Virus record (IMG/VR): IMGVR_UViG_2778261645_000001
Reading direction: 5' to 3' (one strand)
Origin: a virus
Lineage: Duplodnaviria; Heunggongvirae; Uroviricota; Caudoviricetes
Length of the DNA stretch: 6,252 nucleotides
Notes under the pieces: generated by a model
Databases searched by the model: none
Seen by the model: only the letters and a program-made list of their open reading frames with translations
What the model was told of the DNA's origin: nothing
Program-made: the position numbers and the translations under genes
In this document: piece after piece, positions 1 to 6,252 of the stretch
Numbering within the stretch: the first letter of the stretch is position 1
Layout of the letters: every line of letters begins with the position of its first letter

Positions 1-60
1 GATGATCTGGCAGCCTGAGTTCACAGATAAAACACTCTCCAGGAAACCCGGGGCGGTTCA
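1..60 (+). mobile_element. Right terminus (IRR) of an IS3-family insertion sequence, IS629/IS1203/IS3411-like; the body of the element lies upstream of the window
   Basis: Positions 36-60 (ctccaggaaacccggggcggttca) are the imperfect inverted complement of 6193-6216 (tgaaccgccccggaaatcctggag) at the other end of the window. Ends in the TG...CA dinucleotides typical of IS3-family ends. Matches my recollection of the IS629 right end. GC content is visibly higher than in the flanking cargo. Confidence 0.75.
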
Positions 61-1259
61 GTTAGTGAGTTGTTCCAAGTATTCTTTAAGTTCCCTAACA
101 TCGTCTGCGTAGAGTCCTGAATAGCTTTCCAGCCACCTCTGGAATTAATCTGTGAACCAAGTTCTTTAGCAAACTTAGGGAGTGCATCAGAGGCTTTAAC
201 ATCACCATTTTTCATCTTATCGAAAAGCTGTTTTTCAGTCAGACCTAAAGCCTTTGCAAATGCCTGAGTAGCACCCGGTAAAGCTTCAGATAGTTGCCCC
301 TTAAGCTCTTCAGCCATCACCTGACCCTTAGAAGCCATCTGCGATACTGCGGTTAATGCTCTTTGAATCTGCTCATCTGAACGACCCATTAAACGGGCAT
401 ATCCAGTTAAGTTTTTAAATAATTCCTCTGAGCCTTCAAGACCCATCGTATTTTTTGCAGATGCACCAAATGAAGCAAACTGTGCTTGTGTTTCGGTTGT
501 GTCCATACCAGTAATTTGAGTTAAATCTTGAATGAACTTTTTGACCTGTGTACTTTGGTCACCGAATACGAAATCAATACTTCTTTCCGATGATGCACGT
601 TGAAGGCCAACTTCCATAATCTTCTGATAACTGGCTAATACAGCCTGCATTGAGATAAATGCACCTGCTGTTTTGACTGCTGCCGAAGACAGGTTATCAA
701 GGCTGCTAGCTGCTCTGTCACCATTAATGCTGGTGGATGTATGACCTCTGGCTTTAGCAATTGCTTCTCGTACACTTGAATTTAGTTTAGCAAGGGCTTC
801 ATTAAACTTGGTGTTATCCATCTGACCAGCTTTACTACTTAATGCGTAAAACTGGCTCTTAATGTATTTCTCGACAATTGGGTTAAGACCTTTCAGCTTG
901 GTCATATTAGCTGAATAAGCTGCTGTGATTGCTCTGTTGCCGCTAATTCGTGGCTGTCTCGGTTGTTTTGGAGGATTAATCGCATCATTAACCTGACTTG
1001 TGAAACGGAAAGCTTTAGTATTTTTTGCTCTAGCTTCCAGACGGTCAAAGGTCTTATTAATTTTCCCTTCCATTGACTTCAAAGAACTTGTCAGATTACT
1101 GTCAAGTTGCTTGGTATCGACCTTAAACGCTCTATTCAAATTCCGTTCAATTCTTTGTGCTGATTGCAAAGCTGCCTTTTCAACTCTTTGCAAGCCCTTA
1201 ACAACGTTCTCGCTGAAGCCTAGCTCAACGATAAAACTATCAACTTTAAACTGTGCCAT
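21..1259 (-). CDS. Phage tail tape measure domain protein, N-terminal ~399 codons only; 3' end interrupted by the IS terminus (likely pseudogene or truncated gene)
   Basis: 412-aa ORF with ATG at 1259 and a Shine-Dalgarno-like AGAGGTGA about 11 nt upstream. The segment GLEGSEELFKNLTGYARLMGRSDEQIQRALTAVSQMASKGQVMAEELKGQLSEALPGATQAFAKALGLTEKQLFDKMKNGDVKASDALPKFAKELG resembles the conserved tape-measure domain (TIGR02675/TP901-type core). The last 12 residues (EPPRVSWRVFYL, plus the stop) are translated from IS terminal sequence (21-59), so the native frame is cut at position 60/61. True tape measure proteins are usually much longer than 400 aa. Confidence 0.6.
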   Translation of the reverse strand: MAQFKVDSFIVELGFSENVVKGLQRVEKAALQSAQRIERNLNRAFKVDTKQLDSNLTSSLKSMEGKINKTFDRLEARAKNTKAFRFTSQVNDAINPPKQPRQPRISGNRAITAAYSANMTKLKGLNPIVEKYIKSQFYALSSKAGQMDNTKFNEALAKLNSSVREAIAKARGHTSTSINGDRAASSLDNLSSAAVKTAGAFISMQAVLASYQKIMEVGLQRASSERSIDFVFGDQSTQVKKFIQDLTQITGMDTTETQAQFASFGASAKNTMGLEGSEELFKNLTGYARLMGRSDEQIQRALTAVSQMASKGQVMAEELKGQLSEALPGATQAFAKALGLTEKQLFDKMKNGDVKASDALPKFAKELGSQINSRGGWKAIQDSTQTMLGNLKNTWNNSLTEPPRVSWRVFYL

Positions 1260-2602: not shown

Positions 2603-2846
2603 GTAGCGAAAAGCATTGCACCTTTCAGAATGTTCGGTATAGAACATACCTCACCAACTCAGAATATCCATCCATCCATCTGATTATTGAAAGAAATATA
2701 AGAGAGAATTACTCTCCCATAATTAAAATTATGTCATGCTTAAGGTTATTTGTCAACAACTTTTTAACAGATTGGTAACATTTATACTTTAATAGATGCA
2801 CCTGCAATCATACCAATCAATACAAAACAGATAATCACCAATTCCA

Positions 2847-3176
2847 TTAATGCACCACCTTCGAATCCGTCACCAAAATATTGTCAGCGTACAAAATTGC
2901 TATAGCTGCCTTGAGATATCTTTCAGGGCTAATGCTGTATTTGTTCGTTTGCTCGATAACCAATCTTTTCATGTTGCTGTCTTTAATTGGTAGCATCATT
3001 CGAGGCTCGTTAAACTCCACCGAGTGAATAAAGTCAGAGATGTTTTCTGCATTATCAGCCATCAAAGCTAACAGCCTGTCAAAGTCAATGCTAATACCTG
3101 CATCAATGAAGCTTTGCACCATCATAGCAGTGTCGGTATCAATAAAAATCTGTAGTGGGAAGTTTAATTCTCTCAT
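2847..3176 (-). CDS. Hypothetical acidic protein (109 aa)
   Basis: ATG at 3176-3174 with a strong Shine-Dalgarno AAGGAG about 9 nt upstream (minus-strand context AAAAGGAGATTTTAAGAAATG). Clean ORF. No recognisable domain. Confidence 0.7.
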   Translation of the reverse strand: MRELNFPLQIFIDTDTAMMVQSFIDAGISIDFDRLLALMADNAENISDFIHSVEFNEPRMMLPIKDSNMKRLVIEQTNKYSISPERYLKAAIAILYADNILVTDSKVVH

Positions 3177-3197
3177 TTCTTAAAATCTCCTTTTTAC

Positions 3198-3318
3198 CAG
3201 ACCTCCTCAATCGCTCTGTAACGAGCTAAACAGTCTTTTTCAGGGGTAGCCTGTAGGGGTGTGCCACATACCCTAAAATAAGATAGTTTTTTGCGTTAGA
3301 ATGCGATTGAGAGCGTCT
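3198..3318. repeat. Copy 1 of a two-copy ~100-120 bp element with conserved inverted termini (repeat A)
   Basis: Shares a ~46-bp left block (cagacctcYtcaatcgctctgtaacgagYtaaac...cagg) and a ~30-bp right block (ttttttgYgtYagaatgcgattgagagcgtct) with 5125-5222; the centre differs. The outer 16 bp of the two blocks are imperfect inverted complements (13 of 16). It lies in the 169-bp spacer between the 69-aa and 109-aa genes. Confidence 0.6.
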
Positions 3319-3345
3319 GAGAGTGGGTAAAACCGTTTTTTGCCT

Positions 3346-3555
3346 TTAGTCTGAGACTATTAACCCCATCTCACTATGAAATTGACTAAACCAGCTTTTT
3401 GTTACTGAGGTTTTTAGTGTGAAAGATGGGGATTGCATAATCAGATAGATGCCATCATTATCAATGTCGCCCCATCCACTATGTACATCAATTAGATTTC
3501 GAAAATATTTAAAGGCTTTGTCTGTTTTAAGTTTGAGGGTGAATACTTTCTTCAT
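3346..3555 (-). CDS. Hypothetical protein (69 aa)
   Basis: ORF track gives 3346..3567 with a TTG start. The ATG at 3555-3553 has GGGGGAAAGA immediately upstream and forms an ATGA start/stop overlap with the upstream 76-aa gene, indicating translational coupling. Confidence 0.55.
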   Translation of the reverse strand: MKKVFTLKLKTDKAFKYFRNLIDVHSGWGDIDNDGIYLIMQSPSFTLKTSVTKSWFSQFHSEMGLIVSD

Positions 3556-3782
3556 TCTTTCCCCCAATTCTTAATGAGTTCATAGGCCCGTTTAAATTGA
3601 GTCGGGTCACTATAATCAAGCTCGATATCCAGTGACTTTAATTCATAGCGTAACTGCTCAATTTGATGTGGCTTTAGTCTTTTCTTGTTACGGTCAAGCG
3701 TAACATCTTCATATTCTTTTGAGCGGGTATCTTGCCTGATTAGATGTGATGCCAGTCTATAAAATTTGTATCTACATAGCAT
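3552..3782 (-). CDS. Hypothetical small basic protein (76 aa)
   Basis: ORF track gives 3552..3815 with a TTG start. The ATG at 3782-3780 is preceded by a consensus Shine-Dalgarno AGGAGG with a 5-nt spacer, and overlaps the stop of the upstream gene by one base (TAATG). Confidence 0.65.
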   Translation of the reverse strand: MLCRYKFYRLASHLIRQDTRSKEYEDVTLDRNKKRLKPHQIEQLRYELKSLDIELDYSDPTQFKRAYELIKNWGKE

Positions 3783-4056: not shown

Positions 4057-4335
4057 TCAGACCTCCAGAGACAGCTTGCGAATCTTGATGCTCAATAGAC
4101 GGGCAATATCAATTTTAAAGCTGTTAAGTCCCTTCAAAGTATCTAAAGCGTCCTGAGTAATTCGGATGTGTTTACGACCTTTAGAAACTGGATATTTAAG
4201 TAAATCCGACTCAGTGACCTCTTTAGCAATTGCAAGCTGCATAACAGTCTGATGAGGCAAGCTACTAGCTCGTTTAATTCTGGTAAGCTCGTTAAAAGCT
4301 TCCTCTGAAATACGGGTTAATGTGTGTTTATTCAT
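4057..4335 (-). CDS. Putative ribbon-helix-helix (Arc/CopG-like) DNA-binding protein, 92 aa
   Basis: ATG at 4335-4333 directly abuts the stop of the upstream gene (TAAATG), with AGAGGAA about 7 nt upstream. The N-terminus HTLTRISEEAFNELTRIKRASSLPHQTVMQLAIAK fits a beta-strand, helix, helix RHH pattern. Assignment is by pattern only. Confidence 0.4.
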   Translation of the reverse strand: MNKHTLTRISEEAFNELTRIKRASSLPHQTVMQLAIAKEVTESDLLKYPVSKGRKHIRITQDALDTLKGLNSFKIDIARLLSIKIRKLSLEV

Positions 4336-4893
4336 TTAAAATTCCTCTGTAACTAAATACGGGTCAAACTCGAAATCTGGTTGCTCGTTTTCCATTGGCT
4401 CAATATTCCCAACGGCAATATGATGTTCAACAATACCAATTAGCTTTGCACACATTACAGCAAGCAATGCACAATAGGCATCGGTTGGTAATTCGTAGCT
4501 AAGTCTGGTTGCTTGTCGCTGAAGATGATTTGTCACGGTAGCTGAGTTAATTTCATCAAGGTTCTTTAGAAGATAAAATAGTTTTTTGTTGTATTTCGGG
4601 TGGCCTTCACTTCTACAGAATCCAATGAAAATATCATCAAGCTTACTTGGTAGTTGCTCGTAGCTGTCGAAGTTAGCCAAATAATTTTTGATGCTGTTCT
4701 TTGTTGTTTTGCGTACTGACATATAACGACTCCTCGGTGTAATTGCCCGAATTACTTCGTCAATGCCTTTGCGTTCTGCTCTGGTGAATTTGGGTACTTC
4801 GTGGCTGGTGGGGGAGTTTGTGTAAGCGTAGGAGTTGTGCTTGTTGCGTTCTCTCGATGCCTGAAGCATCGCTCTAAATTCTCTGTCGTTCAT
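4336..4893 (-). CDS. Hypothetical protein (185 aa), promoter-proximal first gene of the small-gene operon
   Basis: ATG at 4893-4891 with AAGGA about 12 nt upstream. It sits about 45 bp downstream of the -10 of a near-consensus promoter. Acidic C-terminal tail (ENEQPDFEFDPYLVTEEF). No domain recognised. Confidence 0.7.
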   Translation of the reverse strand: MNDREFRAMLQASRERNKHNSYAYTNSPTSHEVPKFTRAERKGIDEVIRAITPRSRYMSVRKTTKNSIKNYLANFDSYEQLPSKLDDIFIGFCRSEGHPKYNKKLFYLLKNLDEINSATVTNHLQRQATRLSYELPTDAYCALLAVMCAKLIGIVEHHIAVGNIEPMENEQPDFEFDPYLVTEEF

Positions 4894-4942
4894 TCATAAG
4901 CCAGTCCTTATAATTGTTAATTCTCTGTTAACCATATATACA

Positions 4943-4971
4943 ATACTAGCAGTTTCAAAGACTAATGTCAA
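4943..4971 (-). promoter_or_regulatory. Near-consensus sigma70 promoter for the leftward small-gene operon
   Basis: On the minus strand: -35 TTGACA (revcomp of 4966-4971), a 17-bp spacer, -10 TAGTAT (revcomp of 4943-4948). Correctly placed upstream of the 185-aa gene start at 4893. Confidence 0.6.
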
Positions 4972-4978
4972 GCATTTT

Positions 4979-5008
4979 TTAACATTTCATTAACATCTGT
5001 GGTATAAT
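4979..5008 (+). promoter_or_regulatory. Rightward promoter with extended -10, divergent from the operon promoter
   Basis: -35 TTAACA (4979-4984), an 18-bp spacer, extended -10 TGgTATAAT (5000-5008). Back to back with the leftward promoter; the two -35 elements are 7 bp apart. Confidence 0.5.
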
Positions 5009-5124
5009 GGTTCTATGGGGAGAGTAAAATATAAAGGCGTGGCTATGAGGTTTATTCGATAGGGGTTGGTACAAGCCCAACTAACCGAATCAACTATGTA
5101 TGTCACATGGTATTGCATTGCACA

Positions 5125-5222
5125 CAGACCTCTTCAATCGCTCTGTAACGAGTTAAACGGCCTCTTCAGGTCAACTCATAAGGTCAGGTACTTTTTTGTG
5201 TCAGAATGCGATTGAGAGCGTC
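5125..5222. repeat. Copy 2 of repeat A
   Basis: Same conserved left and right blocks as 3198-3318, with a shorter, divergent centre. Lies about 115 bp downstream of the rightward promoter; its right block ends about 5 nt before the AGGA ribosome-binding site of the 5238 ORF. Confidence 0.6.
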
Positions 5223-5237
5223 TTACAAGGAAAACTA

Positions 5238-5414
5238 ATGGTAAATCTCCCTCCTGAACTGGGGTCACCTGATGTATGGGCTGGTGGAGGTATTGGCCTT
5301 ATTTCAGGTCTGCTGCTTCGTTACGTCCTTGTCAGAGTGCTTGTTGTCTTTAAACTGTTCGGTCGTACATGGACGCTTGACCTTAAGGATAATGACCACA
5401 CAGACCCCCGCTAA
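5238..5414 (+). CDS. Candidate small hydrophobic (single-transmembrane) peptide, 58 aa
   Basis: ATG at 5238 preceded by AGGA with a 7-nt spacer. Product MVNLPPELGSPDVWAGGGIGLISGLLLRYVLVRVLVVFKLFGRTWTLDLKDNDHTDPR has one hydrophobic segment of about 23 residues. ORF track reports it as 5196..5414 from a TTG start. Local GC is higher than the surrounding cargo. A weak CCCC/GGGG hairpin (5429-5452) follows the stop. Confidence 0.3.
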   Translation: MVNLPPELGSPDVWAGGGIGLISGLLLRYVLVRVLVVFKLFGRTWTLDLKDNDHTDPR

Positions 5415-5489
5415 ACCCCCTCCAAAACCCCCTGTACGAGATGGTATAGGGGCATCTTTAGCATTTTGTGCTATCTATTAAAAAATAGC

Positions 5490-5519
5490 TTGACAGAACC
5501 GGAAAGCTGTATCTATCAA
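5490..5519 (+). promoter_or_regulatory. Possible promoter reading into the tandem-repeat region
   Basis: TTGACA (5490-5495), an 18-bp spacer, TATCAA (5514-5519). The -35 is consensus but the -10 is weak, and there is no obvious downstream gene. Confidence 0.25.
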
Positions 5520-5534
5520 GCACTCACCTCTCTG

Positions 5535-5724
5535 ACAGTAATTTCTAAAAGTTCTTATTTTTCAATAAGTTGTAATTAGCCATATATAGAGAACTGACAA
5601 GTCTCTTCACAGAGAACTCTGTAACCTTAACAGTAATTTCTAAAAATGCTTATTTTTCAATAAGTTGTAATCACCCAATATAATAGCTGTTCAGCTTCTT
5701 CACAGGGAAACTTCAGAGGCCTTC
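5535..5724. repeat. Two tandem ~95-bp direct repeats (repeat B), each with a CTTATT-N4-AATAAG hairpin
   Basis: Units start at 5535 and 5630. The first 42 bp are 40/42 identical (acagtaatttctaaaaNtNcttatttttcaataagttgtaat); the remainder is recognisably related but diverged. Embedded inverted repeats at 5554-5569 and 5649-5664. Unit 2 contains a perfect TATAAT at 5679-5684. Confidence 0.65.
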
Positions 5725-5985: not shown

Positions 5986-6192
5986 TTAGCTCAACCTTTG
6001 AACAATCTTGTAAGTGGTGCTTAGAGGCATTCTTAGCGATTCTGCGATGCTCTTGATGGGTTGCCCTTGGTCATACATTTTAATCAACCTGTCAAGCGTC
6101 TGTGCATCGTGTATATGAGGTCTTCCACGTAAACCACCCCTATTAACCACGGCAAGTAAAAGCATTGTGTCACCACAATAGATTGTCTGGGT
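5986..6192 (-). pseudogene. 3' fragment (68 codons plus stop) of a small serine recombinase (resolvase/invertase family), truncated at the IS boundary
   Basis: The minus-strand frame open from 6192 to the stop at 5988-5986 translates to TQTIYCGDTMLLLAVVNRGGLRGRPHIHDAQTLDRLIKMYDQGQPIKSIAESLRMPLSTTYKIVQRLS. The GRP followed by ...G-x-x-I-x-x-I-A-x-x-L-x-x-x-x-S/T-T-x-Y-K pattern matches the C-terminal HTH of resolvases such as gamma-delta, Hin and Gin. The catalytic N-terminal part would have lain where the IS now sits. Not in the ORF track because it has no in-window start. Confidence 0.55.
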
Positions 6193-6252
6193 TGAACCGC
6201 CCCGGAAATCCTGGAGACTAAACTCCCTGAGAAAGAGGTAAACAGGATGACT
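6193..6252 (+). mobile_element. Left terminus (IRL) of a second IS629-like element, including the orfA ribosome-binding site and start codon (ATG 6247-6249)
   Basis: TGAACCGCCCCGGAAATCCTGGAGACTAAACTCCCTGAGAAAGAGGTAAACAGGATGACT matches my recollection of the IS629 left end and orfA start (MT...), with one or two differences. It is the inverted complement of 36-60. Same orientation as the copy at the window start. Confidence 0.75.

Follow-up and report, generated by a model that had tools for sequence, protein, structure and literature searches.

The sequences considered here find their closest described counterparts in the binding sites of phosphorylated ArcA (ArcA-P). The minimal ArcA-P site is 5'-ATGTTAAAAA-1-ATGTTAAAAA-3', with TGTTA as its most conserved part (Park and Kiley, PMC4173790), and an 18-bp ArcA box was present in 158 of 176 chromatin immunoprecipitation (ChIP) regions (Park et al., PMC3798270). 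ArcA sites mostly overlap sigma-70 promoter elements, many contain three to five repeats at 11-bp spacing, and ArcA and PhoB boxes have identical spacing and similar composition (PMC3798270). Chromosomal ArcA sites are deliberately degenerate, which preserves oxygen responsiveness, and consensus repeats make ArcA repression persist in air (Park and Kiley, PMC4173790); the boxes of Table S3 include K-12 prophage regions (intF, appY and ybcV). Sequences of this kind occur in a 6,252-nucleotide stretch of Caudoviricetes DNA (IMG/VR record IMGVR_UViG_2778261645_000001, referred to at its full length as the window), which is part of an uncharacterised ~11.5-kb phage-derived integrative island. Its switch region contains a leftward promoter, P_L, and a rightward promoter, P_R, flanked by four TGTTAA hexamers, and was described in the original prediction as a repressor-controlled switch with a small protein of the ribbon-helix-helix (RHH) type as one candidate regulator. 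The observation proved to be larger than first noted, with three sites at three promoters, and the most likely binder appears to be the host redox regulator ArcA, an option outside that prediction.

The sites of the island resemble the chromosomal ArcA boxes of icdA P1, lpdA and cydA in having direct TGTTA repeats at 11-bp spacing, with two to three repeats per site, in overlapping a -35 element, a spacer or an early transcribed region, in occurring in both strand orientations, and in scoring within or above the ChIP-seq range. They differ in that the six main cores of the island are perfect and fixed, in that one of the boxes, the R box, outscores every site of the training set described below, and in that they lie on a mobile island absent from K-12. 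A precedent for the use of host ArcA by a mobile element is promoter P_Y of plasmid R1, where ArcA (SfrA) is recruited, with TraJ, upstream of the main operon promoter through the box TGTTAAGTAAATGTTAA at -76..-60, and where the ArcA consensus is given as TGTTAA(N5)TGTTAA (PMC7303359). The TraY protein of F contains a whole RHH dimer in one chain, and its adjacent sites are bound as a three-protein train (PMC12117103). Like the elements carrying P_Y in F and R1, the island is mobile and combines TGTTAA-N5-TGTTAA with a TraY-type RHH protein, a 92-aa polypeptide that is, as F TraY, a single-chain double RHH. At P_Y, however, ArcA is a co-activator and anti-silencer of a promoter with a poor -35, whereas the island promoters have consensus -35 and extended -10 elements and one box lies on P_R, which predicts repression; moreover, no TraJ, relaxase or oriT was identified in the island.

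The operators of P22 Arc and Mnt, CopG and omega are palindromic or pseudopalindromic, and binding by their homodimeric RHH proteins has been demonstrated. These systems share with the locus the back-to-back promoters, operator subsites at roughly helical-turn spacing and, in one operon, a gene for a small RHH protein, but the island sites are asymmetric direct repeats identical to the box of a host regulator, and the RHH protein is only a candidate binder. The CI/Cro region of phage lambda is alike in its divergent promoters, which share an operator-rich intergenic region, and in belonging to a phage-derived element; in the island, by contrast, the repeats are direct and not palindromic, neither transcript starts with a recognisable helix-turn-helix (HTH) repressor, and there is no evidence of bistability. 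Because P_R leads to a 58-aa membrane peptide and no CI/Cro-like regulator was found, the locus is not a switch of the CI/Cro type. What survives of the repressor-controlled switch is thus the presence of real, conserved operators on divergent promoters and of a real RHH protein.

The promoters were found by consensus scan, with predicted start sites, and the three listed here rank far above the rest of the window. The operators and promoters are as follows:

4914..4931, plus strand: left operator (L box), TTGTTAATTCTCTGTTAA, with TGTTA twice in direct orientation at 11-bp spacing
4979..4996, minus strand: right operator (R box), ATGTTAATGAAATGTTAA as read on that strand
2764..2781, minus strand: third operator (M box), ATGTTACCAATCTGTTAA, with an exact TGTTA-N6-TGTTA at 2765-2780
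4971..4943, minus strand: leftward promoter P_L, -35 TTGACA at 4971-4966, 17-bp spacer, -10 TAGTAT at 4948-4943 with TG, 10/12 match, predicted start at ~4936
4979..5008, plus strand: rightward promoter P_R, -35 TTAACA, 18-bp spacer, extended -10 TGgTATAAT, 11/12 match, predicted start at ~5015
2756..2728, minus strand: third promoter P_M, TTGACA-17-CATAAT with TG, 11/12 match, predicted start at ~2721, absent from the original prediction

A reading of positions 4700-5300 confirmed the four hexamers where they had been placed, with TGTTAA at 4915-4920 and 4926-4931 and its complement TTAACA at 4979-4984 and 4990-4995, all as read on the plus strand. The consensus scan likewise located both divergent promoters at the claimed places, correctly called back-to-back, but the distance of about 30 bp given for them was loose: 7 bp separate the two -35 hexamers, and 79 bp the predicted start sites. 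All six main repeats of the L, R and M boxes are exact TGTTA, and the centre-to-centre spacing is 11 bp in each box; a weaker third repeat of the M box, TGTTG at 2758-2754, overlaps the P_M -35. The bare hexamer is not rare, with 11 copies in the window against 6.2 expected, but the exact paired unit TGTTA-N6-TGTTA occurs three times against 0.03 expected, a count reached in none of 200 shuffles. The L, R and M boxes are the sole copies of this unit in 30 kb of related E. coli chromosome, and essentially no others were seen in the ~80 loci fetched. Since a third site with equal geometry stands at a promoter 2.2 kb away, the boxes make up a small regulon and not one switch. Control of the switch by GATC-specific Dam methylation is unlikely because 4894-5014 is without GATC, and a reading of the inverted hexamers as RNA structure is excluded because the two pairs never share one predicted transcript.

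The match of the boxes to ArcA sites was scored with an 18-bp matrix rebuilt from the 115 ChIP-seq boxes readable in Table S3 (training mean 15.8 bits, maximum 21.6, against a mean of about 15.6 bits for ChIP-seq sites). The R box (ATGTTAATGAAATGTTAA) scores 23.6 bits, above all 115 training sites, and the L box (TTGTTAATTCTCTGTTAA) and M box (ATGTTACCAATCTGTTAA) score 18.2 and 18.3 bits, at the 78th and 80th percentiles of real ArcA boxes, respectively; pairing the second M repeat with the third gives an additional 13.2 bits. The second repeat of the R box, ATGTTAAAAA, agrees with the published 10-bp consensus at 10/10 positions. Chance would give 0.035 sites of at least 18 bits per window, and two or more were found in 0 of 2000 resamples; of the composition-matched resamples of the 344-nucleotide intergenic region, 0 of 1000 contained two such sites. 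As a control of specificity, the 30-kb locus of E. coli E47 contained just four sites of 13 bits or more, namely the three of the island and the ArcA box already known at ompW. The boxes thus show the direct TGTTA core repeats, the 11-bp spacing, the matrix score and the overlap or adjacency with predicted sigma-70 elements that characterise ArcA boxes, and every host found (Escherichia, Shigella, Salmonella and Citrobacter) carries a conserved ArcA. Because the hexamer sequence and its 11-bp spacing match the ArcA site, the island is probably wired to host respiration and not only to a repressor of its own.

Conservation was assessed in homologs gathered via neighbouring proteins and by a metagenome scan anchored on the central 20-mer at 4953-4972, which lies outside every hexamer; 65 distinct related switch sequences were aligned. 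In the core columns, TGTTA at 4915-19 and 4926-30 and TAACA at 4980-84 and 4991-95, 19 of 20 positions are invariant, the exception being 4917, changed in one sequence, whereas 8 of the 12 inter-core columns are polymorphic (Fisher p = 4.7e-5 against the cores). The 11-bp spacing inside each pair does not vary, and a loss of the hexamers in homologs, which would have counted against the original prediction, was not seen. The hexamer did not stand as the unit: its sixth base varies, with 39 A and 26 T at 4920 and 52 T and 13 G at 4990, and the conserved element is therefore the 5-mer TGTTA in pairs 11 bp apart. Strict helical phasing between the two pairs is not conserved, since the interval from the left pair to the P_L -10 changes by -1 to +2 bp and the T-run at 4975 has an indel of 1 bp. 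The P_L -10 is kept as TAnnAT and its -35 is invariant, and the TG and TATAAT of P_R are essentially invariant. The M box and P_M were seen in 57 homologous loci, the number counted as running >2.6 kb downstream being 55, and the most divergent complete-genome copy (82% identity) retains all three sites. Among ~65 homologs, scores range over 17.6-25.1 bits for the R box and 15.2-20.2 bits for the L box, except for one TGCTA variant at 11.5 bits, and the M box mostly scores 15-22 bits; the substitutions sit at positions 7-12 of the matrix, where information is low. The repeats thus behave as operator sites, being statistically unexpected, phylogenetically footprinted and placed on predicted promoter elements.

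The R box overlaps the P_R -35 and spacer, with cores at -35..-31 and -24..-20 relative to the P_R start, and at the same time lies upstream of P_L, with cores at -59..-55 and -48..-44 and a weak third repeat, TGCTT, on the P_L -35. The L box lies in the early transcribed region of P_L, with cores at +7..+11 and +18..+22. The M box adjoins the P_M -35, with cores at -59..-55, -48..-44 and -37..-33, and the upstream layout of P_M is that of P_L. By this geometry the R box serves two promoters, and P_L and P_M share one architecture. A separate feature of P_L is its 17-bp spacer at 4949-4965 (GCAGTTTCAAAGACTAA), which is nearly invariant even in loci fetched via proteins and so conserved beyond the needs of a spacer; an operator in its own right may lie there, perhaps one for the island RHH protein.

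The explanation favoured here, to which we assign a probability of roughly 0.6, is that ArcA-P binds the boxes and gates the three promoters of the island. ArcA-P is a host response regulator of the OmpR/PhoB family that reports a reduced quinone pool (low oxygen), and it would occupy the boxes as head-to-tail dimers. At P_R, where the R box covers the -35 and spacer, bound ArcA-P should occlude RNA polymerase and would shut off the transcript for the membrane peptide. At P_L, ArcA-P would be placed by the R box just upstream of the -35, with the weak third repeat over the -35, and by the L box at +7..+22, a position resembling that of the footprinted ArcA site of icdA at -12..+21 (PMC4173790); at P_M the upstream arrangement would be as at P_L. 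The net effect would be that at low oxygen ArcA-P holds the island promoters down. The boxes being near-perfect, and consensus repeats having the effect described by Park and Kiley, repression may last in air, and the strong R box may perhaps be held down in most conditions. Of the predictions that follow from ArcA binding, repression at P_R is the safest, and the sign at P_L and P_M is uncertain; this sign, like ArcA binding itself and the start sites, is something we infer.

Several points weigh against this explanation. ArcA binding to the boxes is deduced from their sequence alone, and promoters as well as start sites are predicted. Compared with typical chromosomal ArcA sites, in which TGTAA, TGTGA and AGTTA occur commonly, the cores are more perfect and vary less; cores so perfect could reflect selection for maximal ArcA affinity or, equally, a different and stricter protein. 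The operon flanked by two of the boxes encodes a DNA-binding RHH protein whose beta-strands are invariant, and the upstream position of the box at P_L and P_M (-59..-44) is not by itself repressing. Should ArcA nevertheless bind, a widespread and unstudied island would be silenced or switched by the respiratory state of its host, and there would be an easily tested handle on the timing of island expression. The island would then be a chromosomal, phage-derived addition to the F-plasmid precedent of mobile elements using ArcA, and the R box would rank among the strongest natural ArcA sites, useful for relating site strength to oxygen responsiveness. The natural assignment of the operators to the neighbouring RHH gene is probably wrong. 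The literature yielded no paper connecting ArcA with the island.

That assignment is nonetheless the best of the alternatives, although an unlikely one: the 92-aa RHH protein alone would bind the boxes, autoregulating P_L and repressing P_R and P_M, and the likeness to ArcA sites would be coincidence or mimicry.

4057..4335, minus strand: 92-aa single-chain double RHH protein, the candidate island-encoded DNA-binding regulator

In sequence-profile searches this protein gave only a marginal match to a VapB antitoxin family (E = 0.08), and its RHH profile found nothing significant among PDB sequences. Its AlphaFold2 model, built on a 25-sequence alignment, is confident (predicted local distance difference test, pLDDT, of 90.7) and predicts strand-helix-helix, a linker, and strand-helix-helix. 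The label RHH-like was therefore right, the model resembling the single-chain double RHH of F TraY. One pseudo-dimeric monomer would sit on each asymmetric TGTTA core, neighbours cooperating one helical turn apart as in the TraY train on F oriT or in Arc tetramers, and an asymmetric 5-mer in direct repeat does fit an asymmetric pseudo-dimer with two different beta-strands. F TraY, itself a monomeric double RHH, lines up as a train on neighbouring sites, direct as well as inverted (PMC12117103). The element thus encodes an RHH protein and carries TGTTA subsites about one helical turn apart, as RHH operators require; the gene belongs to the operon whose promoter the boxes flank; and the cores are more perfect than is typical of ArcA. 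HTLTRIS and RKHIRI, the putative DNA-reading strands, show little or no variation in homologs as distant as 64% identity, and the site cores are likewise all but fixed. With strands and cores both essentially fixed, no covariation signal is possible, and the two allelic types of the protein, A and B, whose helices differ strongly, occur with all site variants and do not track the sixth base. The prediction was thus correct in placing an RHH protein in the operon, but no link specific to these sites and no covariation with their variants emerged, and the sequence-profile and PDB searches returned no relatives with known operators. The ArcA match, in addition, exceeds the core, extending over the second R repeat (ATGTTAAAAA, 10/10) and the A/T-rich spacers, which is not expected of an unrelated protein.

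Two combinations of the ArcA and RHH readings are less probable again. In the fuller version, which must be regarded as rather improbable, near-perfect ArcA operators are fixed on all three promoters, the TraY-like RHH protein reads the same TGTTA repeats and competes with or substitutes for ArcA, and the activity of the island, possibly its excision or interference with Felix-O1-like phages, is gated by oxygen. A simpler version, of slightly lower probability still, has ArcA-P and the island RHH protein both using the boxes, in competition or cooperation, so that host redox and the state of the island are combined. The evidence for either single binder applies to it, and P_Y of F and R1 has an ArcA box and plasmid regulators at one promoter, with the RHH protein TraY as first gene; the F and R1 proteins, however, use different, adjacent sites (PMC7303359).

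It is considerably less probable that another OmpR/PhoB-family regulator with 11-bp-spaced direct repeats, such as PhoP or PhoB, is the binder. The PhoP box is (T/G)GTTTA-N5-(T/G)GTTTA and the PhoB box CTGTCAT-N4-CTGTCAT, alike in repeat architecture and spacing, but each half-site is mismatched at a conserved position (TGTTA against GTTTA or TGTCA), and the island has six exact ArcA cores with scores in about the top fifth of real ArcA sites. The view that there is no dedicated operator, the hexamers being by-products of promoter elements (TTAACA as a -35) and of A/T-rich intergenic composition, is effectively refuted already: one of the four hexamers is indeed the P_R -35 and the single hexamer is mildly enriched, but the paired unit stands at 3 against 0.03 with 0/1000 intergenic resamples holding two sites of at least 18 bits, the other three hexamers lack a promoter role yet are invariant while the spacers vary, and the same pair recurs at the third promoter in all homologs.

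The genes next to the switch region are the following:

4336..4893, minus strand: gene of a 185-aa orphan protein, first in the leftward operon, without a Pfam, PHROG, NCBIfam or PADLOC match
5238..5414, plus strand: gene of a 58-aa single-pass membrane peptide (MVNLPPELGSPDVWAGGGIGLISGLLLRYVLVRVLVVFKLFGRTW...), first coding target of P_R behind a 223-nucleotide leader

The operon behind P_L comprises the 185-aa gene, the 92-aa RHH gene, the HNH gene and those further on. The 185-aa protein is unusually diversified, with 1072 clusters at 90% identity, all in Enterobacteriaceae, and an exhaustive search of 1.8 billion representatives gave fragments and two weak relatives without informative domains. 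Its AlphaFold2 model (pLDDT 45.7) is unreliable and was not used. The protein has an acidic C-terminal tail (ENEQPDFEFDPYLVTEEF).

The small open reading frame (ORF) behind P_R encodes 58-62 aa with one hydrophobic helix and a charged tail, and its frame is kept, with amino-acid variation, in ~70 loci. No homolog with a functional name was found for the 58-aa peptide; it has no DNA-binding features, and profile scans detected no HTH repressor adjoining the switch. The P_R leader varies from 80 to 235 nucleotides among island variants, falling into classes of ~80, 130, 180 and 215-235 nucleotides through block insertion or loss. In the window the leader (5015-5237) has its longest form, and its block 5130-5236, missing from most homologs, ends in GGTACTTTTTTGT. 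The leader at 5015-5240 folds no better than shuffles (z = -1.28), and Rfam contains no known RNA matching downstream of P_R.

P_M lies upstream of a 240-250-aa gene and of the tape-measure and Dit genes. The predicted P_M start coincides with the beginning of a G+C-rich hairpin and ensuing U-rich stretch (TATGGGAGAGTAATTCTCTCTTATA TTTCTTTCAA) just 3' of P_M, at 2697-2721 of the minus strand; the hairpin is kept in homologs with compensating stems (GGGAAGAG/CTCTTCC, AGAGAGA/TCTCTCT and GAGGATAG/CTATCC) and could be a terminator, an attenuator or a 5' stabiliser. A leader of ~300 nucleotides separates the hairpin from the 240-250-aa gene.

The 121-bp switch region was found in 367 of 5426 complete E. 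coli genomes, chromosomal every time and in at most three copies per genome, and also in E. albertii, Citrobacter, Salmonella and Shigella; across the sampled E. coli matches this non-coding sequence is 82-98% identical. In E. coli E47 (NZ_CP121151, with the switch at about 3,001,530-3,001,650) the island is flanked by tonB and yciI. It begins there with a large serine recombinase, a Dit-like baseplate protein, a tape-measure protein and proteins of 73, ~240 and ~107 aa; these are followed by a variable slot (holding HNH in the window), the 92-aa protein, the 185-aa protein, the switch and the small ORF, and then by ~0.6-1.4 kb without an annotated gene, a second variable slot (a Dam methylase with an HTH_7 tail, or a small resolvase) and further variable genes. 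The whole island, the second slot and the insertion sequence (IS) copies that bound the window are placed as follows:

8644-20148 of fetched locus L001: whole island
1-57 and 6193-6252 of the window: termini of IS629/IS1203 (IS3 family), one at each end
5986-6165 of the window, 17666-18334 of L001 and 3106-3675 of locus L010: right-hand variable slot

The left IS copy truncates the tape-measure gene, whose ORF 21..1259 continues into the IS, and the right copy truncates the Dam-HTH_7 methylase gene, of which the last 59 aa remain (5986-6165); the island copy in the window is accordingly degraded. The nearest relatives of the tape-measure gene (21-1259) are the tape-measure proteins of virulent Felix-O1-like myophages of E. 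coli, Salmonella and Shigella, with 32% identity over the full length. The structural genes of the island are the tape-measure protein and the Dit-like baseplate protein only, accompanied by the large serine recombinase, and this layout suggests a phage satellite or an anti-phage island directed at the Felix-O1-like group. No description of the island was found in literature searched for a tonB/yciI island or for satellites with tape-measure genes. Scans with Pfam, PHROGs, NCBIfam and PADLOC gave names for the tape-measure protein, the HNH protein and the HTH_7 tail only. Rfam returned nothing in the whole window at E values up to 1, and on a related locus only an rhtB match below threshold. 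From the methylase gene to yciI, at 18334-19890 of L001, ~1.5 kb without an annotated gene is 75-88% identical among island copies across species, and this segment too was without an Rfam match.

The product of the slot to the right of the switch is in some loci a Dam-family adenine methylase whose HTH_7 tail is of the resolvase type, and in others a small serine recombinase, 181-189 aa long. A shared HTH from this slot was considered as the binder of the hexamers and dropped, the Dam-HTH_7 protein and the small resolvase having no detectable similarity. The small invertase-like gene stands beside ~1 kb of repeat-rich non-coding DNA, which hints at an invertible or recombining segment. Switching by inversion between 4966-4980 and 5481-5495 is unsupported, as every locus fetched proved collinear. 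Between the small ORF and the methylase gene, direct repeats of 48 nucleotides (92% identical) lie at 5535-5582 and 5630-5677, in a unit of ~95 bp that continues to ~5710; each holds a 16-bp palindrome, CTTATTTTTCAATAAG (~5553-5568 and ~5648-5663), followed by the short repeat TCTTCACAG(A/G)GAA, and they could be iterons, recombinase sites or protein-binding sites.

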